Position numbers and translations under genes: made by a program | Notes under the pieces: model-generated | Database searches by the model: none | Told to the model about the DNA's origin: nothing | The model's input: the letters and a program-made list of their open reading frames with translations, nothing else | DNA from: Euglena gracilis | Taxonomy: Eukaryota | Direction: 5' to 3' | DNA: 64,000 nt | NCBI GenBank assembly: GCA_039621445.1 | Contig: CP154954.1 | Location: 29,645,411-29,709,410 of the forward strand | Shown: in pieces, positions 2,725 to 64,000 of the stretch | Numbering within the stretch: position 1 is the first letter of the stretch | Layout: each line of letters starts with the position of its first letter

Positions 2725-2740
2725 GCGGTGTTCCCCCCAG
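2725..2740 (+). promoter_or_regulatory. Putative spliced-leader trans-splice acceptor (ttccccccAG) 8 nt before the ATG
   Basis: Pyrimidine tract plus AG just upstream of the start codon. Euglenozoan mRNAs are SL trans-spliced. Inference only. Confidence 0.35.
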
Positions 2741-2748
2741 GGCCCCCC

Positions 2749-2830
2749 ATGGGCCGCTGCGGCGTCGCAGCGCTCCTGGCGGCCCTCCTTTCGGTGCTCT
2801 TCTGCCCCGGGGCCTCGGGGGCAGCCGTCT
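2749..2830 (+). CDS. GDSL exon 1, signal peptide MGRCGVAALLAALLSVLFCPGASGAAV
   Basis: ATG 2749, basic N-terminus, hydrophobic core and A-S-G-A cleavage region. The 3' boundary is inferred (T|GC gives Cys in frame with 3374). Confidence 0.65.
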
Positions 2831-5800: not shown

Positions 5801-8800
5801 CAGCCGTCATCATCGTGAACATCCTCACGGACATCGTGGGGGCGGTGGCCCGGCTGGCGGCGCGGGGGTGTGCGCCGCCCCAACACGCAAAAGGCCCACC
5901 GCGCCGTGCGAGATGGGCCGCCACCCAACTTCACTGGTTGCCCATCTCGCACTTAAGCTTTTTTTGGTCGATGTGCGCATTTTCGCACATCGACCAAATT
6001 TTGATTTGGGCGCCGGCATAACAAGGGGCGAGAACGAGAGGGAGCAAGATTGGACAAAATACGGGCGATTTCTCATTTTTGGGCACCGGCTCTCCGGGGA
6101 ATTGCATATTTTTTTTGCCGTTTTTTTTTTGAAGTCGGAATTGCGCGAAGACCCCCGGACCTATCCCCCCAAAGTGAAGAAACACCGACGAAAACACCAA
6201 AACCCCGGTACTGCAACCCCCCATTTTGTGCGATGCGGCTCTGCTCGCCGGTTGTTGGTGGCCCTGGCTGGCTCTCTCTGGGGGTTTTGGCGCACTGTTT
6301 TGTTTTTGCAAGCCTCGGTCTTGTGTTCTTGGATGTTTGCCGGAGGGCGGGGAACAAGGATGGGGGGGTTAGGGTGGGTCTAATCGCGTCACTGGACAGG
6401 GACACAGAAAGGAAGGTGTGCCTGGGGAAGGTTGCCTGGGGATTTTGCAGGTGAAGGGAAAGTGGTTTTAAGGGGAGGGAAGGGTCGCACGTCCTCACCG
6501 AACTTACAGTGGGGATATGTCCCGCCAAATTGTGTCGTGATGAAACGGGAGAGGGTATCACACAAATTTCAATGGAGTGATATATTACAGCCATATTTAG
6601 AAAAGGAATAATGTCGATGTGCGCAATTTCGCACATCGACCATTCAATGGTTCCCCTGAAGAACGACCATAAACACCACAGAATTCGTTTTGCTGAATGC
6701 GGTGCGACAAATACCAATGAGTTTGGGACAGAAGATGGGGTCGCTTTGTGCAAATGCGCACACCGTCAATGTGTGCGCATTTGCGCAAACCGACCCCATG
6801 TGTATTTGTGAAAGGGATGCGAACAAGTATCATGGCACATAAACAGGCCTCGCTGCCTTGAGTCTTTTGACACAACAATAGCTGGAAGGGCCTACGACGA
6901 TTGCTCTGAAAACAGACAGAAATGCAATGAAAAAACATATGTACCAAGTACCAGGTCGGAATGAAAAAAGTGGTCGGTTTGCGCAAATGCGCACATGGTC
7001 GGCGTGACACATTTTCACAAACCGACCACGGGCATAAAGATGGACGTCGTCGGAGTGCAAAATGGTGACACCACGATGTGCACACCGACCACGATAGCAA
7101 AATTTCGGACAACACATCAAACACGACCCCAGACATCACCAGCAGTGGCTGCTTCGGTGTGCAATTTCAGCTGCCACACACCTCCACCACGAGCTTTTTT
7201 CAGGGCCGATTCTTGCCCAGTGACAGGTCCAGGTCCATTTGGAGACTGCAGACCTCTAGTAGATGGTCCGCCGCTGGCACGTCGTGGCACACGTGTAACG
7301 GCGCCGCTTGGGCAAGGGGTGGCCCTCGAAAACCCCCACCACTTGCCCCATGGCTTGTGTTTTGCTGCAAAAGTCACATCAGGTGATGATAGGTGGTTGC
7401 ATTTAAGCATCCACAAGGCTGTCATTAACCCCCCTGGTTCATCCCCCACAACCGGGACGGGGGGCGGGCATGCTGCGGGTCGATGGAAACAATAGTAAAT
7501 GGGAGCGTCTTAAATGTGGCCACAAAGCTCACTGTTTTGGAGGGAGAGAATATTTAATGTTTACACCTGGTTGAGTTGCGTGAAAGTATTGGGCCTCGGC
7601 ACCCTGATGTTGTGTACAAAAACTGGTGTGCTGCATGTTTTCTGAGGGAAAAACGAGGCATCCGTGTGGTAAGAATGGAAAAACAATTCCCGGCCGAGGC
7701 ATCAGGAAGATTACACATGCGTAATTTTGCAATTTTGGAAGTCGTTATTTTTGATGAAAGTGTCCAGCAATCACGGGGGGTTGCGCGCCATCAATTCCTC
7801 CTGCGCAACTTCCAAACTGATGACGTGAAAACGATTGGTTGTGCGGGTTGGAAATAAGACATTGAAACCTGCCTATGGAGCAGACAAACTTTTTCCTGTC
7901 ATAGAGCGTGTTCTTTACATTTCGCTTTACCAAAAACCAGATTTCGTCACCACACTTCAAAAGTTTGTCGTCCACAATGGTCGGTATGTGCAAACGTGCA
8001 CATCAACTGTTAAGGACGAAGAGCACACCATAATACGGAGGTAAAACAAAGGTAACCCCCCCAAATATAAAGCCCCCCCAGGGGGTTTGGTTTTGCCGCC
8101 TAAATGTAAAGCCCCCCCTGACGTGGAGCCAGACGCTGGTGTCATTCAAGAAAAAGTTTGAATTTTTGGGTGGATACAATATTTTCCTCTCCAGAGATGC
8201 TGCATTTGGGATAAGAATTGCACATTTCTGCGAAAAATTGGAGGTACACAACGAAAATATGGCATAAAATTGGTATTTGGCCACAATCGAAGGCCGTTGA
8301 AGGTCATAGAGGCCACCCAAAAAAGTTTGATTCCCCCCCAAATATAAAGCCCCCCCAAATATGAAGCCCTCCCTGAGGGTATTGAAATCCTGTCCAAATG
8401 TAAAGCCCCCCCCCCCCGGCTTTATATTTGGTGGGGGGTTTATATTTATTAGCCACCGTTCTTTGTCGCACATTGCAAACAGCACCCCTTCAAAACCCTT
8501 GCCCGAACCTTTTCTTCCAGAGCCAAGAAAAGGCAGGTGTTGTGTTTCATGTGGCAATATAAAAAATGTGGAGGATATTTCACAAATTCCAGCCCCGGAT
8601 CCCCCCTCCCCCCCTATCCCCCCCAGAGGGGTCCAGCCAGCAGCTCATTTCCAGCCAGCAGCCTTTTTGCCAGCTGGACCCCCCCCCCGGGGGTCCTTAA
8701 GAAAACCCCTGTGGGGTCACTATTCGGAACGTTGGTCGAAAACCGGGGGGACTTCTATTCGGGGGGTGGGGGGCACTATTCGGGGGGGGGGGGCTTCTAT

Positions 8801-22800: not shown

Positions 22801-22831
<31 letters not shown>

Positions 22832-24829: not shown

Positions 24830-26339
24830 CGCCCGCCGCGACGTGCTCAACCTCTCAATTGTGCTCTCAACTGCATTGAGTGCAGGTGCACAAACGTCCA
24901 TTTTTCTGGTGTACATTACGCCTATTTGCCCCCTCGCACAGCACTTTTCTTCTTCTTTCCACACTCTTTTTCTGCTGTCTGTTTGCTTTTATAATTTCCT
25001 GGAATTTTTTTCAGTCCTCACCTGGATGTGGAACAGGGGTTTTTTTTTTTAGTCTTGGACCCTCTCCCCCGGGGAGGGGGGTAGGGTGGGTGGGTCCCTT
25101 GGACCCCTCCCCCCCGGGGGGGTTGGGGCTGGTGGGTATATCTTTTTTGGCGCCGAAAATTTTGAAAACGGTGCTATTTTTAGCATTTTCGAGCAAAAGT
25201 GGGTGGTCCCCCAGGATCCCCCCCCCTGGGGGGCCCCCCCTTTGGGGGGGGGGGGGTGGGTGCCGCCCCCCCGTCCCTCCTCCCCCCCAGTCTAAAAAAA
25301 AAACCCTGATGTGGAAGCCCTGAGTAGGCTTCTGCTTAAGAAATATTGGTGCCTCCAGGGGGAACTGCAGCTGGCCCAAAGTCAGGGATCTGTTAGGCGC
25401 TGGGGAGAAGTTCTTGACCCCCAACCCAAAATGCCCTAAATGCCCATTTTTGGCTTTTTGGGGGGGGAGCAACCAACAAAAATCTTTAAACGTTTCAGCC
25501 CCCCCCCCCAACGCAAGGTATTAAAAAAAAAGTGGGTATTGACTAGTTTTTGGCTCCAAACCCCCCCACCCAGTGGGCGGTCGGCCAGGATTGGCTGAAA
25601 GTGACCACCTGGCACCAAAAGGCCAATTTTGGGGGGATTTTCCACCAAAATTCTTTGATTTTTGGCCATTTTTGTCCGACTGGCCAAAGTGACCAACCCC
25701 TCCCCCCCCCCCCCGGGGGAAGTGGGTGACTGGTTTTCGAAAAGTGACTGACAGGTTTTTGAAAGTGGAAAGTAACCCCCCAGGGGAGGTTGGTAAGCAG
25801 TGGTATGGTTCCGACCTGGGGGGGGGGAGACCCTCCCTCCTCCTCCCCGTTCACTCAATACCCTGCCGCCAAGAGGGAGTTTCTAGCTGGTGGACTGCCT
25901 TCAGCTCAGTCCAGTGGACCCCAGGGGCCTTGGGCAAAGGCCTGGCCCTGAGTAAACCCTTTAGAAGGAGCCGAGACAAGGATTTCAAGTAAGTTTGAAG
26001 GAAGACATCAGCAAGCGTGCATGCACATGGAGCTGCACACATCACCACCAATGGCGAAAGAGGGTTTCACAAAAGAAAGTGCACGGAACCGTCCCAACAA
26101 TAAAACAGCAGAACCATTTTGAGTTCAGGAATTTGTGAAAATGAATCATGAAGACCCGATCTCACAACTGAAAGAGAGAATCTTGCGAAGCAAGGCTTTG
26201 GTGCATTGGTGCGAGAGTATATCTGAAGGCAGGGCTGACCCCCCTGGGCTCCTGCCTGTCAGGCATAACTGTTTTTGAAGGCGAAAAAATTTCAAACATT
26301 TAGGTTTTAAGGGTTTTTTCGGGCAGGTTGGTTTGCTAA
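24296..26339. repeat. Segmental duplication, copy B (matches 1-2049)
   Basis: Offset about 24.3 kb, same orientation. Confidence 0.95.
25034..25308. mobile_element. hAT-like MITE, 8-bp TSD ATGTGGAA
   Basis: CAGGGGTTTT...AAAACCCTG with perfect direct repeats at 25026-33 and 25309-16. Confidence 0.85.
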
Positions 26340-27377
26340 CCCGTGTTCCCAAAGCCCGAAACCACATCACAGCGGTGCACGACTCGGATTCAAGGCAGGC
26401 AAACAACAGGCCACACCCAGTGCGTCCTTCAACATCAATGCGCGTGTGCGCATTCCCTCCTTCCCACAGCCTGTGTCTATTTCCAAAAAATGTGCAGGCG
26501 CATTCTTTGAGGTTTCAAGAAATGCGCAGGTGCGCATTCTTCGGCCTTGATACTCAGTGACACCCCTGTTGTTTTGACCTTGGGAGGGCTGCGTCTCCAT
26601 GGCTGCAAGGTGCTCCTTCCCATGCTCATCCTGGGTTCACCAGGCCCTGCCCCCCCGGAAGCCATCAGCATGCATCGGTGAACACAAGGTAGCACACCCA
26701 GGTCCAGGTTGTCCTGCGTTGTCCGTGTTCCGCGTGCCGTGTGGAGTGTGCCGAGTGTGTGTCCAGCCACGCACTGTACCACAGTCGTCGGGAAACAGCT
26801 GTAAACAGCATGATACGTAGTTGAACCAGTAAACAGGGGGTAGTCCTTGTGGTCGTGTAATATCCAAACAGCTCATTTTTGTGGTGTTTACACCCAGTTT
26901 GAAAGAGACATCAAGCCATCTAGAATGCGCACCTGCGCACACCGCTTCCGAAATGCGCGGATGCGCATGTTCACTAAAACTGTCAGAATTTTGTAACTCG
27001 ACAAGAAAAGTGCACTCCCGGCCGTCTAAGTTGCACAGCACATTTTGAGTTTTCAACGTTTCTAGATTTCTGATGCATTTCTTGCAATCCGCATGGCCTG
27101 CTGGATCGGGGCAGGGGAAAGGGTTCTCGACTGACCCGGGACACCCGCGATGATCCTCACCTGCCCCTCTTGTCTAAGAACCAGGAAAGGAAAGCAGGGG
27201 ACTTTAAGGGACAGGAAAGGTTTTTTTTATTTATTTTCTTAAGGACCTTCCCCGTGCCGCGGAACCTTCCTTTTGGTCCCGCGGCACCGGGGAACCTGAG
27301 AATTGGCCCTCTTCAGGGACCAACTTAGGCCAGAGGTTAGGTTTCGTTTTGGGAAGATTTTTGAGTCGTCCGTTGGC

Positions 27378-27423
27378 CAGGGTTTGATATAAGGAGGGCG
27401 TACATGGTTTAGGTGGGGGGGGT

Positions 27424-27456
<33 letters not shown>

Positions 27457-27826
27457 TTGCCCGCAGGGGGGACGCCGCACCCCCCCCCCCCCCCACCTGC
27501 CAGGGGGTCCGGACCGACCCTCGGGGGGGTTCCCGGGGCCCCCCCCAAAAAGGGTCAATTTTTTCCTCCGGCGCTTTGCGCCAAAATTTTTTTGCATTTT
27601 TGGCACATTTTTGCCCAAAAAGTGCCCAAAATGGCACTTTTGGTCGTTTTGGGGGGTCAAAAATTTTCGGCCCGGCGCTTCGCGCCAGGCCGAAATTCGG
27701 TAACCCAGACCGCGCACCTGTTTAGGTGGGGGGGTGTGCCCCCCCCCCCCCCCCGCCGCCCCCCCCTCCTGGCCCGCAGGGGGGGTCCGGACCTCCCCCC
27801 CCCACCTGTCCTTATATCGAACCCTG
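27378..27826. mobile_element. hAT-like MITE, 8-bp TSD CCGTTGGC
   Basis: TIR CAGGGTTTGATATAAGG / CCTTATATCGAACCCTG (16/17); perfect TSD. A solo right TIR of this family lies at 23631-23647. Confidence 0.9.
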
Positions 27827-28519
27827 CCGTTGGCCCCAAAAATGCCTGAATTCGGCCTAAATTCGTCCGCGGCCTCACTTCACCTTCACTTCACTCACTT
27901 CCCCTCACTCCTCCTTCGAAGATCGGGGAGCCCGACGGGAGGCCGATCGTAACCCTAACCCTATTTCAATCAATAACCCCGACTTTCCCCGGAAGGTTGG
28001 ACCCAGGTCCCACCATAACCCGCCCCCCTTGTCCAACGACCGGGCTTGTCTAACGACCACCCCCCCGGTCAGAGACGATCTTTTTGTATACTACGTTGGT
28101 TTGGCCAAAATTGCTAAAAAGTTGGTTAAAAAACAGTCAAAAATAGCCCAAAATGGCCTAAAATGGCCAAAGCCCCCCCCCCCCGATCCAACTATATGCC
28201 ACCCGTAGTTGGGAGCTGCCTCATTTTTTCCCCGATGTTGACCTGTTCTCGCCGAAAAATGCCAAATTTCCTTACCCATTTTCCTGTGTATCTTTCATGG
28301 AATGTGCTGGGACAGCAAAGGTTGTTTTTTTTTTTTCATTTGAGGACCGCCCTGAAGGAAAGAGGGTGCTGAACTGAACCTCGTCGAACAGAGGGGCTGC
28401 TCGGAAAGCTGGAAAGGGGGCGAACAAGTGGCCGCCGGGAGCTTTGCAGCCCAACTTCCCTGTCAGAAAGCCCCCGCCCCACACCCATCCATTCGCATTC
28501 GCCACGCGCACCGCGTGGC

Positions 28520-29226
28520 GGACCGCGTTCCCCGGGTGTGCCCCGCGCCGCAGCGCCCGGGACACGCCGCGCGACACCGCCCCGGGCCCGCCCGCCAGGC
28601 CGCGGCGGCTGACCGCGGCCTCCGCGGCGGAGGCGGGCGACGGCGGTCTGCCGGCCCTGGCCGGCCCCGCGCCGCTCATGCGCCGGCGGCTGCGCCGGAG
28701 CTGCGACCTGGGGGTGCGGATGCCGTCCACCGACATGCTGCCCCCCGCCCGGTGATGGCCCTGTGGCCCGGCGCTGTGGTTGACCCCCCCCCCCAACCCT
28801 CCCCCTGGTGCGTGGGGGCGGACTGGACCTCCCCCCTTTTCCAAATTTCTGGGGCGATTTTTTGGGTCAAATGTTACTTTGCCCAGTGCCATGGTGGGCA
28901 GGGGACCTCCCCCCCCGAGAAACTGTCATTCGTGTAAGTATGTTCAGTGTGCCTGCAACTGCCTGGTCAGGTTTGGTCCCAGTGTTCCGGTGGGATGGGA
29001 ACGGTGCCGGTGCCAGGGGTTGACCTCTGGCCGCCACCGCCGGCGTCTGCCCACCGCCGTCCGCCCGGATCTCGGAGCGGCGGCCGGCGGCTGGTGGTGG
29101 GCGCCCGCCGTGGATGGGTTGGTGGATGACGAGAAGGTGTTCGTGCTGACGCGCACCGCATCCGGCCGGTGCCGGCGGCAGATGCAAGGCGGATCCCGCC
29201 CTGCGCAGGCGGGCCGACCGCACGAG
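28520..29226 (+). CDS. Candidate exons of an unknown gene (~28520-28751 and ~29020-29226)
   Basis: GC3-rich frames LMRRRLRRSCDLGVRMPSTDMLPP and VDGLVDDEKVFVLTRT, each followed by GT. No recognised domain; junctions unresolved. Confidence 0.35.
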
Positions 29227-29330
29227 GTTCTGGGTCCAACTCATCCCCCCCCCCCCCCCTGGACAGAGCACAACCACTCCCAAAAGCCTTCATTTCTACC
29301 GTGCTTTACGCCTTTCTTGGAGACAGGAAG

Positions 29331-29637
29331 CAGGCTGTATTTTAGCCAAGTGCCGCCCCCCCGCCCCCGGGGGAGGTCCCTGCCTGGGCAGGCCCTCCAA
29401 GCCCCCAAAATCCGACCCCGCACCGGGGGGGGGGGCAGGGCACTCCGCCAAAAGTGCCTAGCAGGCACTCCGGCACCGAAGGTGCCGGAAGGCTTTAAAA
29501 AGGCCTATTTTCAAGGGAAATGGCCTATTTTCTGAGGAAAGTTCCTGGGCACAGGCCGAAATCCAACCCGGGGGGGGGGGGTAGTGCCTGCCTGGGCAGC
29601 ACCCAAGGGCACTCCGGACCCGGTAAAAAAAAGCCTA
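29331..29637. mobile_element. hAT-like MITE, 8-bp TSD ACAGGAAG
   Basis: CAGGCTGTATTTTA / TAAAAAAAAGCCTA imperfect TIR; perfect TSD. Confidence 0.85.
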
Positions 29638-32397
29638 ACAGGAAGTTAAAGACGGGTGTGTTTTGCACGGCCTTTCTCAAAGCGATGGCATTAAGTGCAT
29701 CACAGGGCCGGTGCCACTCCGATCCGGCTTTGGTTTGGCGGATGGCCCCCCTGGCCCCGCCGCCAAGCCCAGCATCCCGGTGTGACGCTTCTCGCTGCCT
29801 GGGCCCCAGTCCCCCCGGCCCAGCAGCTGCCTCCCTCTAGCGAACTGCCACCCAAACGGCGGCGGCTGCAGTGTGCCCCCTATTTCAATGGATGTAATGG
29901 ATGTTCTGTGCATTGGTTTGCCATTCATTCTCAGCGATTCTTGCGGTGCATCTCCGGGGCCCAATCTCCCACCTCGTCTCTGGCCCTCTTCATGGGAGAG
30001 AGTGGACAGCAGTGTCCAATGAACACCCTGTGTCTCCCCTTTGTCTAAACACCACCCATGCTAAGTGCCAACCCCCCAGTCCTTACCCATCTTGTTACAG
30101 GTCATCTTCTCGGGGAGGCGTCTTTTGTGTGTGTTTTTAAGAAATATTTCTCGGAAATTTTCAATTATAAGAATTTCTGAAAACTTATTTGGTGAGGTAT
30201 TGTTAATTTTTGATTCCAATTGCCAACTGTGGACTCCAAAAATAAAAGATTTGATTTGGATTTGGATTTGGAACGGATGGCCTCCAACGCCCAAAGTGGG
30301 CAGTACGTCCATCCCGGAAAATATTGGGCAAAGGGAGTGGTAGGGGAGAGGGAAAGGGTAAGCGGGACAGGTGTATAATCGGAAGTGGGAGTGGATTGGC
30401 TTCAACTGACACCCAACCACCAACCTCAGATCCATACAAAGCGTAGACAAGAGAATGCAGGCAAAATGTGATTGTGGTGGGTTATGAAAGCGAAAATTGT
30501 CACACTCAGATAGCAAAGTTTAGATGGCATTAATAACATGGCGAAGGCAGTCAAGCGAGGGCAGTGACTAGCACTCAGGCCATCAAATGACCCTGTCTTC
30601 CACAATCAACCGAATATGGGAGGACGCATAGTTGACAGTATCGGAATGCAAGCAAACCGTCCGTGCATGGGGTGTGTTCATGGGATGTGGTGCCACCTCC
30701 CCGGCCAAGACTACAGACACATCACTGGATGGTGCATGCCAAGGGGGGCTGATATCTGGGCACACACCATCGTAGCTTCCCAAGACACACGTCAACAAGC
30801 AAACCCACCAAGCATCTGCATCAAAAATGGCCACCATGGGGACACGCATGAGAGTGGCTGGCACACCTTTGAGAATGGCGGAACAAAAATTGGTGACATA
30901 CTTCACAGAGATTTGCAGACCTTTGTGGTCAAAGGCGAACCACAACCAAAAAAAAAAACCAGGCCCGAAGCGCTCACAACCAAGCCTGGAGGACACACAA
31001 TAGGGTCCAGGATCATCTTGAAACATGGCACCAGAGGTTTCCACTCCAGTGGCCAAGAGACCCAGCGGCGTGATGGTCACAGACTCAGAGTTTAGCTCAT
31101 GAAGCCCTGATAGAAACACAAAAGCCGAGGCAGCTAAAAAGGGGGGGGAATGGCGAAATGGAAAGGCCAATGAAAGGCCTCAAGCTTACAAAATGGACAC
31201 TTCGCTACGTCCAAAAATAAAAGAAGTAGTTCTTTTTTTGTGTGAAGCGTTGTATTTTTTTGCGGTTTCTTACCCATACCTTGGCGAAATGAGCACCCCC
31301 CCCCCCCGGTTCTTACCCATCTTTTCTAGACAGGGGGGAAACCTCATAGGTCCATAAGCAGCTGCTGCTTGACTGCCATGGATAATGTGCAGCTGTCAAA
31401 TGAATACGGAGCCATAGCTGCCTGTTTTCCTGCTGCATTTTGTGGTAGTAGTGGGCCTCTTCGTCATATAAAGTCATACCTCGGCCGCTTTGTCAAGCCC
31501 TCTTTTGCATGCCTGATGTCCATTGCACCCGGAGCAGTTGTTTTATTTAAGTTTTGTGACCCAATGGATCCTGGCCGAGCCCCAACCTCGGGTCCCTGAG
31601 TGGTCCCCTGAGTGGGTACCCACCGGAAGCGGGGTTTTGTTCTATTTTCGGCAAGAAGCGCCGGAAAAAATTTTTGGACCCCAAAATTGAACCCCAAAAG
31701 TGGGTCCCCGAGCCCCTCCCCCTGGTGGGCCTGGACACCCCACAGAAAAGGTCCTAAAAGACCTCTGGCCGGAGGAGGGTAACCCCCCAAAGCATTAACC
31801 CCCAGCATTATATTTGGATGGGATTTCAAGACCCTCGGGGGTATTTGTGGGGGATCAAGTTTTGGATTGCCTCTGTGACCTTCGCGTCAAAATGAGTCAA
31901 ATACCAAATTCATACCCAAATTTCAGTTGTACATTTCCTGGTTTCACCAAAGTGCGCATTTTTTTTGCCTAAAAATGGAGGATACAATCATTTGGTTGTT
32001 TGGTGGGCGTTACACTGCGGGGTTTCTATTTGCAGGGGTTAAGGCGTTGGTGGCTGGTTTGATGAGGGTGGCCACATTGCAATTGCTCACCCCGCCAAGT
32101 TGCCCATGCGAACTCCTTGCGCCACGTATGCTCAGGGATGTGTCTGGATGCATACGTCATCATTGAGAAGCGTGCATGAGCATGGAGGGGCAAGGAAGCC
32201 TGTTGACTTTTTCCAATCTCGTACGCATTTGCATATTTCTCATGCCTTGAATGCATATGGCTAAGGTGCATCCAAACACATTCATTTTTGGGTGAGGGCG
32301 TGTATGGGCCAGTCCGGGTGAAGTTAAGATACATGCAGGTTAAGGATGGTGCTCCATACCACGAATTGCGTCGTCCTTCGAACCAAGTATTCATACA

Positions 32398-32538
32398 TAC
32401 CTCCCCCCCCCCTTGTCTAAGGACCCCCCTTGTCTAAGCACCACCCCCCTGGTTCTTACCCATATTTTGGCAAAATAAGCACCACCCCCCCGGTTCTTAC
32501 CCATCTTTTCCGGTGCTTAGACAAGGGGGGGTGAGGTA
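32398..32538. mobile_element. TA-flanked MITE
   Basis: TACCTCCCCCCCCCTTGTCTAAG / CTTAGACAAGGGGGGGTGAGGTA TIR. Related fragments near 28016 and 31290-31345. Confidence 0.75.
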
Positions 32539-33545
32539 ATCAGAACTCCATACTGAGTACGATGAATGCATTTCCCTTGGTGCCCACCGCCGTGAGCAAC
32601 CACGCACTGGATACTCAGCTTGCACGCACAATTCAGAGGGCCGACAGGGGCGAGTGTTGCTCTCATCGAACCTCTGCCAACGAGTTGTCCATTCGAGGCT
32701 GTGGTTGCATCTCTTTGTGGAAGGTGCTGCCCTGTCCACCATTTTCCCTCCCCGCTCCCTCGCCCACTTTCAGGCAGAGGGCAACCAATGGAAGACCCAC
32801 ACCCCCTTGGGGCAGCCAACATGGCTTTCGCAGTTGCAGGTCCAAAGAAGCTGGTTTTCTTTTTAGATTTCTTTGTCACGTTGTCATGGATAGACCACCT
32901 TTGTACATGCTTGATGAATGCAGATCTGTGGCGAGGGGTTCCCCCACCGGTGTGGGGTGGTTTCTCCCGGTCACCCTATAAATTTTAAATACAAAATGTT
33001 GAAGATGCCAAACTGAGATGAATAACAAAAAGTGATTTGCACAACATTGGATATATAGTTGTATTCGGACGCCCAGAGTTATTGGGTTTTTTTTTCCACA
33101 CTCATGCTGTTGATGTGGCATTGTGCCACAGAGGATATGCTGTTGCCACGTGCATGCCGTGGGTGTGTATTCCGCATGCATCTCTGTGTGTTTGTGTTTT
33201 CAGTGTACACTCTCTCCTACCACTGCTGCCGTCCCCTCGCACTGTTCTCTTCTCGCAAGGAATGAACATATAGCTACCAGGAAACTTATAGCTACTACCA
33301 ACAGGATCCTTTTTTTTGCTTCTTAGGGGAAACCCACCACCCCCGTATCCCCAAATTGTTTGCTCATCGTTGCTGCAAGTTTTTGTTTTCTGCGCTACCT
33401 AGTTGGTTGATCTTACATTTCAGCTGTTTCATGGCCCTTGTCTAATTGCACAAATTTCCAAGTTCCAATTTTTTTTCATTTTCCGGGTTAGTTCCAGGAC
33501 TTTTGAACTGCGGTTACACGCCGGCACTCTGTCGGCTCTGTAGAT

Positions 33546-33607
33546 CAGGTGTTTTTTTTCAGTCCAAGGACCCCACCCTCCCCCCCTGGTCTTAAAAAAA
33601 TCCCCTG
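33546..33607. mobile_element. 62-bp hAT-like MITE, TSD CTGTAGAT/GTGTAGAT
   Basis: CAGGTGTTTTTTT / AAAAAAATCCCCTG termini; 7/8 TSD. Confidence 0.65.
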
Positions 33608-36183
33608 GTGTAGATCTTCACCATCTTATGCAGACAAACCCTGGGGAAAGGCAAAAATTGGTTTTTGGTTCTCCAATTTTGGTGGTTTTGGTTGGTGGGT
33701 GGTGGGTGGTTTGGGGGGGGTTGGTGGGGGTGGGTGGGTCGACTTTAGGTCATGAGTGTGGGTAGGTTTGGAAAACTTCCCGCTGGGGGTAGGTTTTTTA
33801 AAAAACCGGTCTCTGGTGGGGATAGTGCACCCCCGGACCCAGGTGGCCAACTCGCACTGGGGAAGATTTTTTTCTTGTCAAGTTGCGCAATTGCGCTGTT
33901 TTTTTTCAAATCCCTTGAGCATCAGCGCGGCACTTCAGCTGGTTATAAAACAAAATATGCAATGCACATCTCGCAGTTCACATTAAGAAACACGAAGGTT
34001 TCGAACTAGTTATTCTAACTCTGCAGGCAGATTCATGTTCTTGTCTGGAGTCTGTCAAAATCGGTGGGTTGCACACTCTGCGGGGGGGGGGCGGGGGGGG
34101 TGGGGGGGAGGGGGGGGGGTGGGCGGGGTGGGGGGGGTGGGTGGTGGGTGGGCGGGGGGGGGTAGGGTGTGGAGTTTTGTTTTTTGTTTTTTTTTTTTTT
34201 TGTTTTAAAACAAAAAACCCCTGGTGTAGATATTTACACCATTTCTTTGCCGGGTGCTGCTGGATTACCTGTTGATGGGGGACCATTTTTCCACCATTGG
34301 ACAATGTCATGTTTGCACAATTTACATGAGCTCGGTTTGTGCAAATCTCCAGCAATTAACATTAAGAAACGTTCCGACGTTTGTCGAACCAAGGTTATCT
34401 AACTCTGCCAAAGCAGATTCATCCTCTGTCCCCAACTCACGGTCTTTGCCGCACCCTAGAAGCGTGAAAACCTAGGGTAATTATGACTGTTGTTCAGGGG
34501 AACCCAGGAGTGTTTGATGTGCAAAATTGCGTGCACCAACGTGCTCTTTGTTCCGCCATGGAAGCATGAATCGTTCCCAGAAGTTGTTTGCGCACCCTCT
34601 CGCGCGGTCGCAGTTCAACAATTTGGCCGAACACAAGCCCTCTGAAAGTTTGGTGGGAGTTCCCGACCAGAGGAATTCGATCTTTTTTTAAAGTTTGTGC
34701 GTTTTGTTGGACGGTCACCAAATCCCCAACTGACCCGCTGGTTGGGGGGGGGTCCCGCCGATACCCCCCCCCCCCAGGGGGGTATGGGCATCAGTGGGTC
34801 CCCCTGCATGGGATACTTTTGGAGAGTAGAGCCAAGTTGAGATTTGCTTTGCCCATTAAAAGAATAAAATCCCTTCCTATGGGGGAGATGGGCCCTACTC
34901 GGGAAACTGGTCGTCTGACGTGTCATCCCTTCCCGGGGAAAGCCACCCCCCTGCACCATGTAGGTAAGTGCATTTGTCGCCCTTTGCGCAACTGCACACA
35001 CTGCGTCAATTAGGCATTTTTCATTTTTTTTTGCAAAAAACCTGGAAAAAGCGGATGGTACCGTGCAGACTTGGTCTGCATAACCTGCCCTGGAACGTTT
35101 TTGTATCGCCAAGTTGATTTTTGTCTCGGCGATTGGAAGGGGGTTTCCCAAACACACATTCCAGTGCGTGCGTTGTGCCCCGCATGCTGTGCCAGGGACA
35201 CCTGTCTCCGGGCATTCCTGGGGTTTTTTCCGTGCTTTGCAGTTTTTTGCAAGCATTTTTTTTGCTTGCATTTTGCGACTTGCATAATTACTGGGGTCCC
35301 CACCGGGGCACACTGCAAGGGACCACCTCTGATTGCATTGTACGGGTTTTTTGATCCCAAGTGGGGTGTTTGCCTGAATTTTCTGATTAGGGGGGGCATT
35401 CTGGGTGCATTCCCGGAAACTTGGTCACCTAGGGGGGGGAGATCTGAACTCTTCCTTTTTGACTGGTCATGTTGGAAAGTTCATTGCACCATGCACCTTG
35501 GGAAGTGCATTGTCAAAAGCTGCGCCTACAACTTGCCTGGGGGGAGATGTCCAACGAAGTGATGGTGTTTCGAGGCGCTGGCCCCCGAAACACAGTTTCC
35601 TCGCCCGGGCATGCAGCAACCCTGCCCTGCCCGCAGAATTGCGTTTGCAGCGACCACCTCTTGCAGCAATTTACTTTGGAATCCGGAAGCGTTGCGAAGG
35701 GTCATCTCGCCCTCAACCTGCTGTTCCGTTTTTCTGGGTTGTAACCTGAGTTGCACAGTGGTTGTCCCCAATCTTGTAATCACTTTAGGGATGGCATGGG
35801 TTCCATTTTCTTTTTGCTGCCATCCAAACAAATGAATATTTTGCATATTTACAGTGGTTTTGTATCCGCAAATGAACATTTTTGGATGGTCATTATTTGG
35901 AGTAACAGGGAAAGGGTTTCATTAAGTAATGAATTCTTGAGCAATGTTTTGGGCCGGCTGATTGGGAGCATGACAATGCCCAATAGGAGCAGTTTGTGCC
36001 TGCAAATTCGAAACAGCGAGTGCATGGTATGTGCTGCGAGCAGTGAAACTCATGAAGTACAATTGTGTGCCATAACAATTGCATTGCTGGAATATTCAGG
36101 CAGATGGCCACAAAGATGACACGAAGATGGGACACATGGAACGCAGGTCCGCATGCATATTCGAAACGAAGGAATCCCTGCAG

Positions 36184-39100
36184 TGTTGACGAGATGGCCC
36201 TCTGCCCGTTTTGCTTGTGTCGCTTTGTCCCTTTGCCGCTGCCGCCACGTTGTCCGATGTGTTGCAGGGCCTCAGGTGACTGGAAGTGCCCTTCTCCCCT
36301 CTTCCTGTCCCGCTCTTGTGCTGGCCCGACCTGCCGGGGCTCGGAACTGATGGGGCCCTGCACAGTGCGGCCAGGTTGCCGTGGGGGCTGGAATCATGGA
36401 AAGTGGACGCGCTTTTGGCACCTTGTTGGGTTCCCCCTGTGTATTAACCCTAGTTGGGCAGGATGGATTATTCTTAAGCGGAGATTTTCAAGCTTTTTTT
36501 ATTTTATTTTTTGAGGTTTTTTTTGTTGTCTCTTCAGGTAATTTGATGTTTTTTTTAAAAAATTAGGGCGGTCCAAGGATTGTCTGGGCATCGACCGTTC
36601 AAAATCAAAAAAAAAGTAGAATTTTTTTTTGAGTTTGGTTGGATAGAGAGCATTCCAGTGATGCCGAAAGCATGTTTTCCCCTGGAGTTGGCCTTTTTCA
36701 CCGAGATTTTGCAATTTCAATTTTGCTGTTGGGGAAAAAAATTTTGCCAGTGATTTTTTGAAGGTTTTGAAGGTTTTTTAAAAAAATTCTAAGGCATTTT
36801 GTCAAAATTTTTGGGTTTTTGAGGGGTTTCAAAAGGTTTTCTTAAAGATTTTTAAAGCCTCGAAAATGAGAAAACGGAAGGGGGGCGAGTAGAGCGGGGG
36901 CGCCCATTTTGCAGCTCTTTGGATTCACTGGCATCCTTGAGGGGGCAAACTATTAAACAAATATGCACACACAATGCAACTGCAATTTTTTACGCTTCTA
37001 GACCCCTCCTTACATGCCCTCTTGGCCCTCCTAAGGTTGGCCCCCTGGCCTTACCTTCAATCATGGACAGGCCAAGCGCCCCGGGGGGGGGTACCCAACT
37101 TCGTCATTGGTTCTTGGCATTCGGCACCCGATGAGCATTTTGCCGTTGTGTCTTCTGAAGGGCCCATCCGACCTTGACTGGTGTGCCAAACCCTGGCCTC
37201 CTTTCTGCGATTGCAGGCCCAGCGGCCGAAGCGCATTTGCCTTCGCTGTACGATGCCAACAAAAGGTACCACGAACTCACACACACGATGTTCACAGTCG
37301 ACACAATCTGTCCCGGGCGCAGGATCCTGCTTGCTTTCAGCATCTCCCAACTGTGGTTTACGGAATGAAACAATGCCGAAGCTGAAAGATGAAGATGATT
37401 TGACACCTCGATTGGGGTTCGTGAACAAACGTTAACTGATGGTTCATCTGTCCAGAATGGTGCCGTCCCAAGTTTTGATAACAGCTTGATGCGGATACCC
37501 AAAACAATAACTCCGCCGGAAATGTCTCGTCCACGCAACGGTTGGAAACCCATCCAGAGGCATTTGGATCCGGCAGGGGGTGTGGGGTTTGCCATGGGTG
37601 CACCGCGGGGACTTGGGTCCGCGTTCCAGAGGTTTGAGGGGCGGGTGGCTGGGAGGGGGTTGCTGCCGCCCACTCCGGCCGCCCTTCCCCCTTCAGGCAC
37701 CCACCGAGGCACTCCGCGCCTGGTGGGGCTACCGCCACGCCGGCCACATGGTTTCCTGCTGCCCCGGCCCCGGCGGAGGAGGGGTCCTCGCCCCTCCGTC
37801 TCCCCGCCCACCGCTCGCCCCCGCATCCCATGTAGGGTTCGATATAAGACCCCCATCACCCCCCGGGTATCATTTTTCGCCTGAAGTCCCGGCCCGAGGG
37901 GGGGTACTATTTAGGGGGTATTTTTTTCTTCAAATTTTCGAATTTTTTCGAAGATTCATAAAGGCTCAAAATAGCACCCAAAACCACCCTTTTTAGGGCA
38001 ATTTTGCAGTTTTCACAATATTGTCCTTTTTGGAGGCCAGATGGTCACAAAAATATTTTTGTTTGTTATTTATTGCGTTAATCCTGTTTTTCAACCACAT
38101 TTTTTCGGGCGAAAATCACGGTCAGCGGCCCAACCAGGCTTGTGCTTAGTCGGGTGCCTACCCCACGGGGCGGGGGGTGCTAGGGGCAGGCACCCCATGG
38201 CACCCGATCCGACCCCCCCCCCCCGGGGGGGGGGGAAGGGTTTTGGGGGGTGCCTGCCCCTAGCAGGCACCCCCCTCCGACCCCGGCACCGAAGGCGCCG
38301 GGGGCCCGGAAAAGGCCATTTCCAATGAAAATTTTCTGGGTCCCCCCGGACCCCTATCCCCCCGGGGGGTGTGTGCCTGCAAGGGGCAGACACCCTATAG
38401 CACCCACCCACCCCCTCCCCCCCCGGTTGGTAAGCACAAGCATGGGCCCAACACTCAGGGGTGTATTATTTTTTTCGATTCAAGGGAGGGGGGCTGTTAT
38501 TTGGCACATGCATTATTATTTGGGTGGTATTATTTGGTTGAGGGTTCAGATAACCCCTCCCCGTGGTCACGAACCCCCTGTCCTTACCCGCCCCCCCCCC
38601 CCGGGCAATTGACGCCCCCGGGCAATTGTCACCCCTGGCTGTGCCGCCCATTTGTCACCCCGGGAAATTGTCACCCCCTTCCGTGCTGCCCAATTTGTCA
38701 CCCCCCCCCCCACAGAAGATGTTTGTGAACTTTTTTTCGCCGGCACGACTCGATTGATCCTCTATTTTGCTACAACGTGCTGAGAAATGTCACATTCCAA
38801 ATGCTCTGCACAATATCACAACCATCGCTGCATTTTTGCTTGTTCACTGGTGTTTCAGATGGTGTTCTTGGTCATTTGGATTTAATGTGGCCTACATGGG
38901 TGGGCATTTGACGCCCCCGGGGAATTGACGCCCCCGGGCAATTGACACCCCCGGGCAATTGACGCCCCCGGGAAATTGTCACCCCCCTCCGTGCTGCCCA
39001 ATTTGTTGCGTGACAATTGCCCGGGGGGGGGGGTATGTCAAACCCTGGTCCCATGCCTGGCGTGAGGCACTGCACCCCCTGGCGCTGGAGGCCCCCTGGT

Positions 39101-41347
39101 CGCCTTCTGACCCGGCACTGCTCTTCCGCTGGTTCAATGGCTGCTCAGCGGCGGCCATCCCGACTTGTGGGCCCCCCCGAGACTCTGCGCGGGGTTTGGC
39201 GGGGGTGCTTGGCCCCCGGGTCTTGCCTGCAACTGCGGAGGAGGGCGCCGCTCCCCCAAGCGCCAAACCCAGGCCCAGTCTCGGGGATTCCATCCCCCTT
39301 CCCATCTATCCCTTCCCTTCCCTTCCGTCTCCTTCACACTTTGTCTCTCTCTGGCCCCTCCCAGACCTTTGCTTAAGGATTTGCACAGTGGTCACCCCCC
39401 TCTCCCCGGGACAGCTGGTCCAAAGTCGGCCAGTCCATTTTGCAGTACCCCTGGGGAGGGGGGGTTGCAAAATATTCCAGGTGGGGGAATTTTTTTTCCA
39501 GTGACCGATGCGAAGCGCCGGATTTTTTTTTGGATCCCCAAAACGTGCCGGAAACCCTCATTTTGACGTTTTAGGAACAAAATCAGCAGAACACACCCGG
39601 TCAAATGCAAAGCGCCATGGGGGATACATTTTATTTTCCGGCAAGGCCCCCCAGACCTCCCTGGGGGGAGGGGGGAGGGGTCCCATTACTGAGCTTTCCC
39701 CAGTCGGTCAGTCCGTGACAGTCTCCCGCCCGTCGACCGGCCGGGGTCCTTCAGCCAATGCCTGGCCCCTCCCCTCCACCCGACCCGCCCCCTGGGGCGC
39801 CGTCCCAGGGCCCCCACCCCGGGCGGCCGAGGGGGGCCAGCGGGGGGCCGGCATCCCGCCCAGATTTTCATTTTGTGCGTTGCAGAATTTTTGTGACCGC
39901 GTGCGCCGCGGAATTTTTTTTCTGTGCGCCGCCGCAAACTTCGTCGCGGTGTACTAATTGAAAGTCTGGTCCCGCCGCCGCCCTGCTGGCCCCCTGTCCC
40001 GCTCACGCGGTGCGCCTTGCCCTACCTCAAACGCTTTGGCATTCCGGTGGCCTATGGCTTCCAGCACAAGTCTGGGCTGGGGCAGCTGCTGCAGGTCGCG
40101 TTTGCGGGTGCGTTGCGTCTGGGGCCCGCTGTCACCTCCGGGGAGGTCGTGGGAGGCCTCTGCTTCTGCTCACTGGCCTCCAGAGCGTGAGCATTGGGGG
40201 GTTGGCTCAGTTGTCCATTTTCCTGCACAGTATTGAAGCCCAGATAAAAAGAGAAATTGATTTCATTTATCTGGGTGAGCTTTCTGCCCCATATGGTTCA
40301 AAGCACCCACATTCAGGTTAGTAGGTGTCGGGTGCTGTGGAGGAGGGGGTGGGTATGGTGGTGTTCAGAGTTTGAAGAGATGTGGGGGATTGGGGGATTT
40401 GTGTACAGTTTTTTTGTTGTGCTTTTTTTTGGTTTTTTTTACAGTGAAGGGGAATGTCCAAGAAGTGTTCACCACCCGAGGCACAGGAAAGGAAATTTGG
40501 GGAAATTTGGTCCCCAACACACAGAAGGGAGTTGTGATTTAGGGGAAGGATCCGGGGCTTCCCTACCCCAATGAGGCCGAAGATCAATTCAGCATTTGGA
40601 CCAGGCTTATACTATGTTTGACACATTTTCCAAAAGCTTGAGTGCCAAACGCCAGAGGGGGCATTCAAGCTTTCGGAAAATGTGTCACAACCTCCTGCTT
40701 GCATGCAAACTTTTACCCTGAAGTTGTCCCCCATTCCTGCACCCCCCTCTTGCACAACAAGAGTACCGCCCCATCCCTCGAAGCAGAAGTGTGGGCAGCA
40801 ACCTGCCCTCCTGGGGGGGGCTTGGGACATGATCTGATGTGTGGCCGGGAGACCAAATCCATACATTGCAAACGTTGGCCAAAAAGCCTGACCTGTCTTT
40901 GGCCCCTGCTCTCGGGTAGGACACGCCCTGAAGGGGGCAGGGGCGTTGAATGATCCATCCCCCGGTGGAACCACCCCAATCCCTGCAGCTCCCCACTGCG
41001 GCTGCCAAGGCTGCCAGGGTTTCGCCACCCCGGGCAACGGTGTGCACCGCTCCGCTGCAGCGCTCCGGGCTTCCTGGGGCCTCTCGACGGGGCGGGCCCG
41101 TCCTGTACATACCAGGCTTCTTTTTATGTCAGAAGACCCCCCCCAGGGGAGGGGAGGTGGGGGGTCCGGACCGGACCCCCCCCCCCCCCGGGGGTCTTAA
41201 AAAGAAGCCTGGTACATACCACCCCTGGCCCCCCTCCCTTCCTGCTACTGCAGTTGCTCCTCTGTGCTCCCTCGTCCCATTCACCGCCGGACCGCATTTT
41301 CCTGGCCACCCCGTTCACCGAGGACCGCATCTCTGGCCACACATATG
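36184..41347 (+). CDS. Candidate exons of an unknown multi-exon gene (~36184-36275, 37697-37750, ~39053-39150, ~40000-40094, ~41030-41085, ~41283-41347)
   Basis: Short GC3-rich islands, several with cag| acceptors or |gt donors: APTEALRAWWGYRHAGHM, ALHPLALEAPWSPSDPALLFRWF, PYLKRFGIPVAYGFQHKSGLGQLLQ, DRIFLATPFTEDRISGHTY. Frames and connectivity unverified. Confidence 0.4.
38135..38444. mobile_element. hAT-like MITE, 8-bp TSD GGCCCAAC (nested)
   Basis: TIR CAGGCTTGTGCTTA / TAAGCACAAGCATG (13/14); perfect TSD. Confidence 0.9.
38585..39035. mobile_element. TA-flanked MITE (Tc1/mariner-type ends), GGGCAATTGAC family
   Basis: TA-C(n)-GGGCAATTG inverted ends; second copy at 58763-59249. Confidence 0.8.
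41113..41211. mobile_element. 99-bp hAT-like MITE, 8-bp TSD GTACATAC
   Basis: Perfect 14-bp TIR CAGGCTTCTTTTTA / TAAAAAGAAGCCTG; perfect TSD. Confidence 0.92.
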
Positions 41348-43070
41348 GTTTTTTGACTCCGCCCTGTCGTGTCCCAGAGACGACTTTGCGGCCACACGGG
41401 AAGGTGTGTGCTTCGCTCATCGTGTGGTTGCAATATGCAAAGCAACGTTTGAAAACCGGGAGCAGTTTTCTAAGAAAGGTGGCAACGCAAAATCACAATG
41501 GAGACACGTCAGGGATTTCGGAGCATGCCCCAGAAGGCTCCTGATATTCCTGAACAGAAGAAGTTGGGGTTGCACATATTTGGGTGTATCCACTGGGGCG
41601 AGTCAATTTCAAAGCGTTGCCCCCCCCCCCCCAACGGAGCGAGCGTCCACGTCAAGAGCCTTGCTGTTTGGTTTCACAGGTTTCGCCGGGCCTCTGCAGA
41701 GGCTCCACCGCCGTTTGCTAATTGCCCTCGATGGTCTGAAAATTTGGAACCTTCATGTTCATTGTGTGTGTTCATTGTTCGGTTCGTGTTCATGCATTCC
41801 GGCTGTTTAAAGAGGATATTTAGGGGATCCGAAAGAGTTGCCTAATTAGATTTCAAAACATGGCGTGGCACCGAAGGTAAAAAGAAAGCAAGCCCCCCCC
41901 CCCCCCCGGAGTCCAGGAGTCCAATTTTGCAGGGAAATCACAAAATGCGCAAAGAGAAGGCAGAGACCCCACAACGAATGAAGAGACCCATTGCAAAATT
42001 CTATGAAGGGAGAAACACTTCGGCATAAACAAGGGCAACAGAGGTCGGATTCCCCCATTTCCGCCGAGCCAAAAACTGTTCGCACCTTCTGGAAAGGTAC
42101 CTCTCTTATCCTCCATCATTTTCACTTTTCTCATTTTCCTTTGGTTCCATTGTTTTGGTCGAATGGTTTTTTTCCATCCATTGAAACATACTCTGTTTTT
42201 CTATCCATCGAAGTGAAACACGGTGAGTGCTCTTGGGGGGGGGGGGGCAACGGTTCAAATTTTGAGACCAGGGCGAGTTTTAAGAAGCCCCCCCCCCCAA
42301 TGGTCGCGCTGGCCCTCAACTGCCATTTCTTTGTGAAACTGGTGCCCATTCTGTTGCTTGGTTCTCTGGGAGGGGAGCCCCCAGCGCAGTTTACAGATGT
42401 GAACTATTTCAGAATAGCAAGTTTTTTTCAACGTCGAATGGGAAGCACGTGAATGGAAAACACATTTTTTATGATCATCAAGTGGCGGCCTATAACAACA
42501 ACCTTGCCCCCCCCCCCCCAGGCCCGAGTAGTTGAATTGGGGGGGGGGGTCGTATGGCGGGACCGGGTTCCACTTTCCAGATTTTTCGGCCTGGTTTGCG
42601 AAAAAAAATCATTTTTGAATACACAGAACACCGGAGCCAAGAAAAGCGATTTCCCCCGTTCGATTTTGGAGGGAACAAAACAGTGGGAGTTTTCTCAGGG
42701 ACCCCAAACGCTCAAAGGTGCCATTGTGCAGCTTTTCCCGTGACTTTCCGTCCTTTTGTGGCAGACACTTTTGGGCTGGCTGGGGGGCTCCACCGCCAGG
42801 CTGGTCACTGACGCCCGGGGAAACGGTGCTGTAGGGGGGGGGGGCAGAGTCCAGCCCCAAACCCCGCCCTCTCACCAGTTGCCGTTGCGACCAAAATGAA
42901 ATGATGTGCACGGTTTCCCGTCAACTTGAGTTTGCCCCGGTTCGGGGAACAGAATCCACTCGGGGGACAGAAACCATGTCACTGCTGGTGGGAGTACCTC
43001 AACCCACCGATTTCTCCGGGCGACTCCGCGGGCGGGTCCGCCCAGCCGCTGTCCTCCCCCTCCCCCTGCC

Positions 43071-63494
<20,424 letters not shown>

Positions 63495-64000
63495 CTGGGG
63501 CCCCCCCTGTGCCCCCCCCCCCCTGCCTGGCCCTCACCCCCCCTACACCGCGCCGCCCAACCCTCATCTGGGGTTGGCAGACCTCGGGGTATTTTTTAGT
63601 CTGGGGGGGTGGATCGTGAGCAGCCTGTTCACAATTTACAGGGCGTTGTATTTTGGGGGTTCAAGTAATGCCCTGATAATCGTGAACAGAAACCGTTTCT
63701 ACAAAAAAACCCACATCGGGATCCAGGATTCTGTCTTGGAAACCCAGAAAACAAGAGATGGGCTTAAGTCCAAGCTATTGGGGGGCGCTTTTGGGTTTGG
63801 GAGGGGGACCCGAAGGCGACGGTCCCGCCCCCCCAAAGGCCCCCACAATGCTTGGACCAAAGGCGATTTTCGGTTTAGAGCCTAAGGGTGGATTCCGTTC
63901 AGTTCACCATACCATTCCATCGTGTTCCATTCTGTTTTAATTCTGTGGCCATCTGTTGAAAGCCCTTTGGACGAGTTGCAACAGAGCAACTGAACTGAAT

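Follow-up and report, generated by a model that had tools for sequence, protein, structure and literature searches.

Euglenid nonconventional introns are removed according to an experimentally defined code, N3-CDG...CH'G-N5-6, after which a purine is the preferred exon base (PMC12501133). Splicing requires a 5' spacer of 3 nt; the spacer on the 3' side measures 5 nt (5-6 nt in the code as finally given). Both CAG and CTG are needed, and the bases following CAG must pair with those preceding CTG. Mutation of CTG to CTA led to intron retention, and mutation of CAG to TAG left no detectable transcript, an outcome ascribed to a premature stop. Because five 50-bp introns of fully synthetic sequence, built to these rules, were spliced out of EgGSL2 (PMC12501133), the code is sufficient, and an element with CAG...CTG terminal inverted repeats (TIRs) satisfies it. 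Here we analyzed a stretch of 64,000 nt of Euglena gracilis DNA (assembly GCA_039621445.1, contig CP154954.1, positions 29,645,411 to 29,709,410, forward strand; hereafter the window) that holds short transposon-like elements with such ends, each flanked by an 8-bp target site duplication (TSD). As judged from sequence, one of these TIR elements, with a perfect TSD, coincides with a nonconventional intron (J1) of a GDSL-lipase gene.

A transposon origin of these introns has been suggested before, as the sequence-only reading of this DNA noted. An origin from elements like MITEs (transposable elements of the miniature inverted-repeat type) was proposed at a time when no transposable elements were known in euglenids (PMC3935182). 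CAG/CTG has since been treated as a TIR, with mention of TSD-like repeats (PMC11282704), and MITE-like elements have been named as a possible intron source, given the inverted repeats (PMC12501133). Junction repeats occur in 84.4% of introns (PMC12501133). Further, a nonconventional intron in the E. agilis gapC gene, recently gained and strain-specific, has eight-nucleotide direct repeats, for which Milanowski et al. (2016) proposed double-strand-break repair (PMC4770533). Both a MITE origin of these introns and a repeat of 8 nt at a new one have already been published. Supplements and subscription papers aside, and within the accessible text of these sources, we did not find in print any Euglena transposon families with such ends or their 8-bp TSD, the 3+5 spacing tied to TSD length, or an intron that coincides with an element flanked by a TSD.

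The closest described route from transposons to introns is that of the introners of Micromonas, Aureococcus and others (Huff 2016 and Gozashti 2022, via PMC11282704). As is proposed here for the window, non-autonomous transposons with TIRs and TSDs become introns, part of the removed sequence comes from the TSD, and splicing takes out the element together with the duplicated bases. Introners are removed by the spliceosome at GT/GC-AG sites, a 3-nt TSD furnishing one of the two, whereas the window elements have no GT-AG, a ruler that measures 3 and 5 nt outward from the paired CAG and CTG ends, and a TSD of 8 bp. Introners form multi-copy families; a second copy of J1 was not found in the window, and one of its TIRs resembles that of the element at 41113. 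Among DNA transposons, the hAT superfamily is recognized by 8-bp TSDs and YARNG ends; it includes families with CAGGGG and TAGGCTT ends and NT....AN targets, and one family in the published table begins TAGGC (PMC3014272). Its definition includes no link to intron removal. The maize Ds element can be spliced imprecisely.

The sequence-only reading had noted that 3 and 5 nt add up to the length of the TSD. This arithmetic is sound, and it can be tied to the experimentally defined code (PMC12501133). We propose, with a probability of roughly 65%, that CAG...CTG elements with an 8-bp TSD become nonconventional introns and are removed without a scar. The window, nuclear DNA of E. gracilis type, would carry no fewer than 14 independently inserted DNA transposons, short and non-autonomous and of several end-sequence families, each of which would have produced an 8-bp TSD. 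An insertion would itself bring CAG, CTG and a stem, and the machinery would cut 3 nt before CAG and 5 nt after CTG if these are paired in the stem, with a purine preferred next. The 3 + 5 nt removed with the element would be exactly one copy of the TSD, so that, whichever the strand, the transcript would regain the sequence it had before the insertion. Exonic insertions would thus be nearly harmless and could persist as new nonconventional introns; afterwards, the intronic parts of the duplication would decay while selection would keep the stem.

The key case for this proposal lies in the lipase gene:

2749..5868, + strand: GDSL-lipase gene, 5' half, matching P0004 (eukprot EG_transcript_10818, PF00657).
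~2749-2820, 3376-3495, 4115-4180, 4469-4486, 4734-4805 and 5725-5868, + strand: lipase exons 1 to 6, by match to P0004.
2822-3374 (2814..3382 with TSDs), + strand: element of 553 bp, CAG...CTG, coinciding with intron J1.

Exons were located with a filter for very high GC content at third codon positions (GC3; 25-codon windows), and the gene maps were then drawn from two transcript-derived proteins. Exons 1, 2, 4 and 5 are 100% identical to P0004, as is exon 3 over residues 63-84, and all five mapped lipase introns (J1-J5) are without GT-AG. The TSD of the element, CTCGGGGG, is perfect (8/8; copies at 2814-2821 and 3375-3382). Exon 1, with a signal-peptide-like start, ends within the left TSD copy; exon 2 begins within the right copy and continues to the FGDSLS block. 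At the joint, P0004 reads ...LFCPGASG|VGDDCLATRR..., the sequence after the bar being VGDDCLATRRVVVFGDSLS, and both copies of the TSD have a match to its residues 23-24. This transcript-derived protein lacks the element along with one TSD and keeps the frame, as predicted for removal of the element with a single copy of the TSD. By the published code, J1 is 2819-3379, GGG+CAG...CTG+CTCGG with G as the next exon base, the junction being fixed by P0004. Inspection of the sequence in all 9 equivalent registers of J1 showed no GT/GC-AG pair.

Were the element retained, translation would stop at 2874-2876 (open reading frame, ORF, 2484..2876). A second sequence, P0003, is a 98% identical ORF from an unspliced or genomic contig and covers the element's end, all of exon 2 and the beginning of J2. 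It carries the end of 2822-3374 at the same site, and the insertion is therefore common to diverged copies of an expressed gene. We infer that the absence of the element from the message reflects RNA splicing at the lipase locus. Its ends are complementary at 12 of 14 terminal positions, and one of them (CAGGCTTCTGTTTC) resembles both ends of the element at 41113 (CAGGCTTCTTTTTA).

The other elements of the window share the geometry of TIR and 8-bp TSD. We searched for exact direct repeats of length k abutting a TIR (at least 11/14; k = 6-10) and compared the result with five Markov shuffles. With ends starting CA or TA, nine such repeats were found at k = 8, and 1, 0, 0 and 0 at k = 6, 7, 9 and 10; with any ends, the k = 8 matches numbered 17, whereas the shuffles averaged 0.4 and never gave more than 1. 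A relaxed scan (YAG heads, at most one TSD mismatch, TIR at least 10/14) gave 13 pairs at k = 8 and 3, 2, 0 and 0 at k = 6, 7, 9 and 10. All nine elements listed in the sequence-only reading were recovered at their positions, with inverted-repeat ends that start CAG (one TAG) and finish CTG (one CTA, one ATG), and its TSD counts hold as well: 8/8 in seven and 7/8 in two. The scans added five (1970-2628, 2822-3374, 39362-39764, 39861-39968 and 56679-57052), for a total of 14, in which the TSD is 8/8 in 11 and 7/8 in 3. Apart from 2822-3374, the elements are:

1970-2628 (1962..2636 with TSDs): TSD CTGCCTGT, 8/8; upstream of the lipase start codon.
25034-25308 (25026..25316 with TSDs): TSD ATGTGGAA, 8/8; ~200 nt beyond the stop codon of the upstream gene.
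27378-27826 (27370..27834 with TSDs): TSD CCGTTGGC, 8/8; ends CAGGGTTYGATATAAGG.
29331-29637 (29323..29645 with TSDs): TSD ACAGGAAG, 8/8; CAG...CTA.
33546-33607 or 33546-34223 (33538..34231 with TSDs): TSD CTGTAGAT/GTGTAGAT, 7/8; two candidate right ends (33607, 34223), with GTGTAGAT directly after each.
37833-39047 (37825..39055 with TSDs): TSD ATCCCATG/GTCCCATG, 7/8; TAG...CTG, same end family as 27378.
38135-38444: TSD GGCCCAAC, 8/8; CAG...ATG, nested within 37833-39047.
39362-39764 (in the span 39354..39976): TSD GCCCCTCC, 8/8.
39861-39968 (in the span 39354..39976): TSD ATCCCGCC/GTCCCGCC, 7/8.
41113-41211 (41105..41219 with TSDs): 99 bp; TSD GTACATAC, 8/8.
56679-57052 (56671..57060 with TSDs): TSD ACCACTGG, 8/8; CAT...ATG ends, within GT-AG intron I7 of the oxidoreductase gene described below.
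59760-59976 (59752..59984 with TSDs): TSD ATGGGGGT, 8/8; within intron I8 of the same gene.
61239-62043 (61231..62051 with TSDs): TSD CTCCCAAA, 8/8; ~160 nt beyond the probable end of exon 11, in the next intron.

Terminal RNA duplexes were better than all 200 shuffles in 9 of the 13 elements tested. As RNA, the 99-bp element 41113-41211 folds into a single hairpin in which CAG is paired with CTG (-79.9 kcal/mol, z -5.96, 0/200 shuffles as good).

Several further observations concern individual elements. In all three 7/8 TSDs (33538-33545 / 33608-33615, also 34224-34231; 37825-37832 / 39048-39055; 39853-39860 / 39969-39976) the mismatch is at position 1, and the right-hand copy has a G directly after the CTG of the element. 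One possibility is that a flanking nucleotide was carried from the donor site, as hAT chemistry would allow. A segmental duplication of ~2 kb (1-2049 = 24296-26339, 98.1% identity) holds the last exon of the upstream gene, with its stop codon near 535 and 24829, and a copy of the element at 25034 (741-1016) whose right TSD has diverged to 6/8; its boundary (2049/26339) lies inside the element 1970-2628. An ORF running into the element at 25034 was rejected as non-coding, the real stop codon lying ~200 nt upstream. The flanks of 39362 and 39861 are not coding-like. Part of intron I8 (58813-59243) is a 430-bp copy, at 85%, of 38598-39033, the right-hand interior of 37833-39047, and contains 17-bp and 43-bp tandem units. 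At 23632-23647 the minus strand carries a perfect CAGGGTTCGATATAAG end that lacks a matching left end in its neighbourhood; this is probably a third, truncated member of the 27378 family. A metagenome scan for the CAGGGTTYGATATAAGG end returned 78 single-match loci, none with both ends, which we regard as chance.

The choice of superfamily is based on three traits: the length of the TSD, the end motif and the target bias. Two of these hAT traits, the 8-bp TSD and the nTnnnnAn target preference, are present. The counts given before for the nine elements were reproduced (T at TSD position 2 in 6/9, A at position 7 in 6/9); among all 14 they are 9/14 and 6/14, a sum of 15/28 (p = 5e-4 in a binomial test with base composition as the expectation, in a small sample of 14 elements). 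Termini start YAG or YAA in 25 of 28. The window elements thus share with hAT MITEs the 8-bp TSD, YAG-starting ends and T2 and A7 of the TSD, and they differ in that many of their ends (CAGGC, CAGAC, CAGAT) fail at the fifth position of YARNG. From these features the elements are putative hAT derivatives.

The same mechanism could instead have run on another superfamily with 8-bp duplications, Merlin or P-type, which we consider unlikely. The ends of P-type transposons also begin CA. The full YARNG is found in only 10 of the 28 termini, the failures being CAGGC, CAGAC, CAGAT, CAGGT, CAGCC, CAGGA, CATGC and CATAC. E. gracilis has two Merlin families with 8-bp TSDs (PMC8101967), and this was the only literature we found on Euglena, hAT and transposase together; hAT, MITE and introns go unmentioned in PMC11252322. 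Merlin resembles the window elements in its TSD of 8-9 bp but has a conserved terminal GG (PMC8101967), and this is missing here: none of the 28 termini starts GG, and all begin C or T. The T2/A7 bias and the CAGGGG.. and TAGGCTT.. ends, moreover, match hAT families (PMC3014272).

To see how far the geometry of J1 extends, it can be compared with the other mapped nonconventional introns; in all, eight introns without GT-AG (J1-J5, I2, I8 and I9) were mapped in two genes, the lipase gene and the following oxidoreductase gene:

3498..4108, + strand: core of J2, GGC+CAG...CTG+CCACC, then G; ends CAGGGAGACCC / CAGGGAGCCCC.
4185..4461, + strand: core of J3, GCG+CAG...CTG+GCCGC, then A.
4806..5719, + strand: core of J5, AGT+CAC...GTG+CGGCC, then A.
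43137..63512, + strand: zinc-type oxidoreductase (MDR family) gene, matching P0001 (eukprot EG_transcript_24767; PF00107, PF08240).
~43137-43151, 45546-45680, 48716-48769, 49114-49299, 51638-51691 and 56559-56639, + strand: oxidoreductase exons.
58609-58644, 60065-60118, 60283-60441, ~61019-61081 and ~63417-63512, + strand: oxidoreductase exons, continued.
45683..48709, + strand: core of I2, AGT+CAG...CTG+AGGGC, then A; exact 3/5 geometry.
60119..60282, + strand: I9 (164 nt), CGG+CAGGCCTCC at the 5' end (CGG+CAG), degenerate 3' end.

A 63-residue exon translation is 100% identical to the EG_transcript_24767 protein. Four introns of the oxidoreductase gene are GT-AG (I1, I3, I4 and I7) and three are not (I2, I8 and I9). 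No exon for residues 146-157 was found in the interval that separates exon 5 from exon 7 (51692-56558), where a run of 253 T occupies 54982-55234, and a (GT)151 array (49333-49633) lies inside the GT-AG intron I4.

The sequence-only reading had described the introns of this DNA in general as 3 nt + CAG...CTG + 5 nt. This was found exactly in four of the eight (J1, J2, J3 and I2), each followed by a purine; these obey N3-CAG...CTG-N5|R with pairing ends, J1 only modestly so, as published for euglenid nonconventional introns. The other half departs from the description to different degrees. J5 has CAC...GTG, a compensated end motif outside the published code with unchanged geometry, I9 fits on its 5' side only, and J4 and I8 do not fit. 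Terminal complementarity is nevertheless seen in J4 (4487-4733; ACGGCGC/GCGCCGT) and in I8 (58645-60064; GGCTGCC/GGCAGCC), with spacers that do not sum to 8. The terminal duplex of J2 has -31.8 kcal/mol, and none of 200 shuffles was as good.

Remnants of a duplication were looked for by comparing the 8 nt before the 5' motif with the 8 nt after the 3' motif, in register 0 and in 16 shifted registers. At register 0, identity was 8/8 in J1, 2/8 in J2, 5/8 in J3, 4/8 in J5 and 3/8 in I2. Without J1, 14 of 32 positions match, compared with about 8 of 32 averaged over the 16 shifted registers. The signal of a repeat in the 5|3 register in these four older introns is suggestive only. The junction repeat of I9 (ACCGG, 5 nt) is out of the 8-nt register.

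Taken as a whole, the interpretation is supported in part. It offers a coherent mechanism, a sufficient splicing code, one instance (J1) and a published 8-nt repeat; its generality consists of one case plus geometry. Several observations weigh against it. None of the nine elements first listed is seen as an intron by itself: 59760 and 61239, like 56679, are passengers inside larger oxidoreductase introns, and no gene was found in the DNA surrounding the other seven. The end types of 29331 (CTA), 37833 (TAG) and 38135 (ATG) were non-functional in the published mutagenesis. Neither the motif nor the 3+5 spacing is present in J4 and I8, two of the eight nonconventional introns, and only 2/8 of the putative duplication is left in J2 and 3/8 in I2. 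A purine at position 6 of the TSD, reported for the nine elements, was reproduced there (8/9) but falls to 10/14 (p = 0.09) once the five further elements are added, and the equivalent on the other strand, a pyrimidine at position 3, stands at 3/9 and 7/14. With 10/14 on 14 elements and 7/14 on the other strand, we do not regard this bias as established; it looks like chance or a strand-specific effect. For J1 itself, no second copy was found in the 64-kb window, and a protein-database search with one of its internal reading frames gave zero matches. Its terminal duplex pairs CAG with CTG but is modest (-15.6 kcal/mol, equaled by 22 of 200 shuffles), and the ends are unpaired in the fold of the whole intron.

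The lipase match is also incomplete. In exon 6, P0004 differs from the window by two internal amino acids (93.9% tblastn match), and exons for its residues 163-330 were found neither by tblastn over all of the window (identity of at least 55%) nor by a finer peptide scan of 5800-24300 (+ strand). The source of P0004 may therefore be another allele or paralogue, and the window copy, ending after residue 162, may be a truncated paralogue or reflect an assembly break. These differences leave room for coincidence: transposons and introns would share no more than CAG/CTG ends, the lipase transcript would come from an allele or paralogue free of the insertion, and the repeats would stem from break repair, as Milanowski et al. 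(2016) proposed for the 8-nt repeat (PMC4770533). The chance-level repeats of the older introns J2 and I2 would fit this as well. We nevertheless judge it quite improbable, as 2822-3374 has the motifs and spacers of a sufficient splicing code and ends with a modest pairing, two diverged copies carry it at the same site, and removing the element plus 8 nt restores exactly the frame and the junction from signal peptide to mature protein. Break repair, in turn, predicts neither TIRs nor a constant 8-bp length at 14 non-intronic elements.

That introns came first and spread as RNA by re-insertion of circles, the intergenic elements being escaped introns, is very improbable: full-length circular RNAs from nonconventional introns are on record (cited in PMC11282704 and PMC12501133), but the constant 8-bp duplication, the nesting of 38135 in 37833, the TIR families and the nT....An bias are signatures of cut-and-paste transposition. 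We know of no RNA-mediated route that yields them.

Regarding the window as such, it contains no N and its GC content is ~0.42-0.68 (2-kb windows). Long ORFs, Pfam and period-3 analysis were of little use in this GC-rich sequence: the ten longest ORFs gave zero Pfam matches, and the period-3 spectra showed weak peaks only. ORFs spanning the 'restored' junctions of 16 candidate elements were likewise uninformative and were set aside. Between 14000 and 24000 the + strand has a strong skew of G over C (up to 0.43); blocks at 15.5-20.4 kb are 77-92% self-similar, and an (ATGT)69 array occupies 22843-23121.

If CAG...CTG elements with 8-bp TSDs do become introns, the transposon route may account for much of the intron class. 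Beyond this, it is conceivable, though we hold it only tentatively and at somewhat less than even odds, that nonconventional splicing is an RNA-level excision system with its ruler set to the hAT-like 8-bp stagger, and that most CAG/CTG introns, hundreds of thousands of them, are insertion fossils. In a bolder version, the cutting and joining machinery would recognize the transposon-end hairpin through descent from, or co-evolution with, the transposition apparatus.

The origin of euglenid nonconventional introns, and of their 3/5 spacing, has been a puzzle since the 1990s, and these introns reportedly make up 71.8% of all introns in E. agilis. Through concrete families, one coinciding element and the match between 3+5 and the duplication, the loose idea of a MITE-like origin becomes a specific mechanism. 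From it follow predictions on the length of the repeat, its register and its decay with age, on a partner transposase and on the behaviour of knock-ins. The mechanism would represent a second, non-spliceosomal route from transposons to introns on a genomic scale, and it would account for the tolerance of such genomes to massive insertion into genes. If the reading as RNA-level excision is true, every exonic insertion would be erased from the message without a scar.

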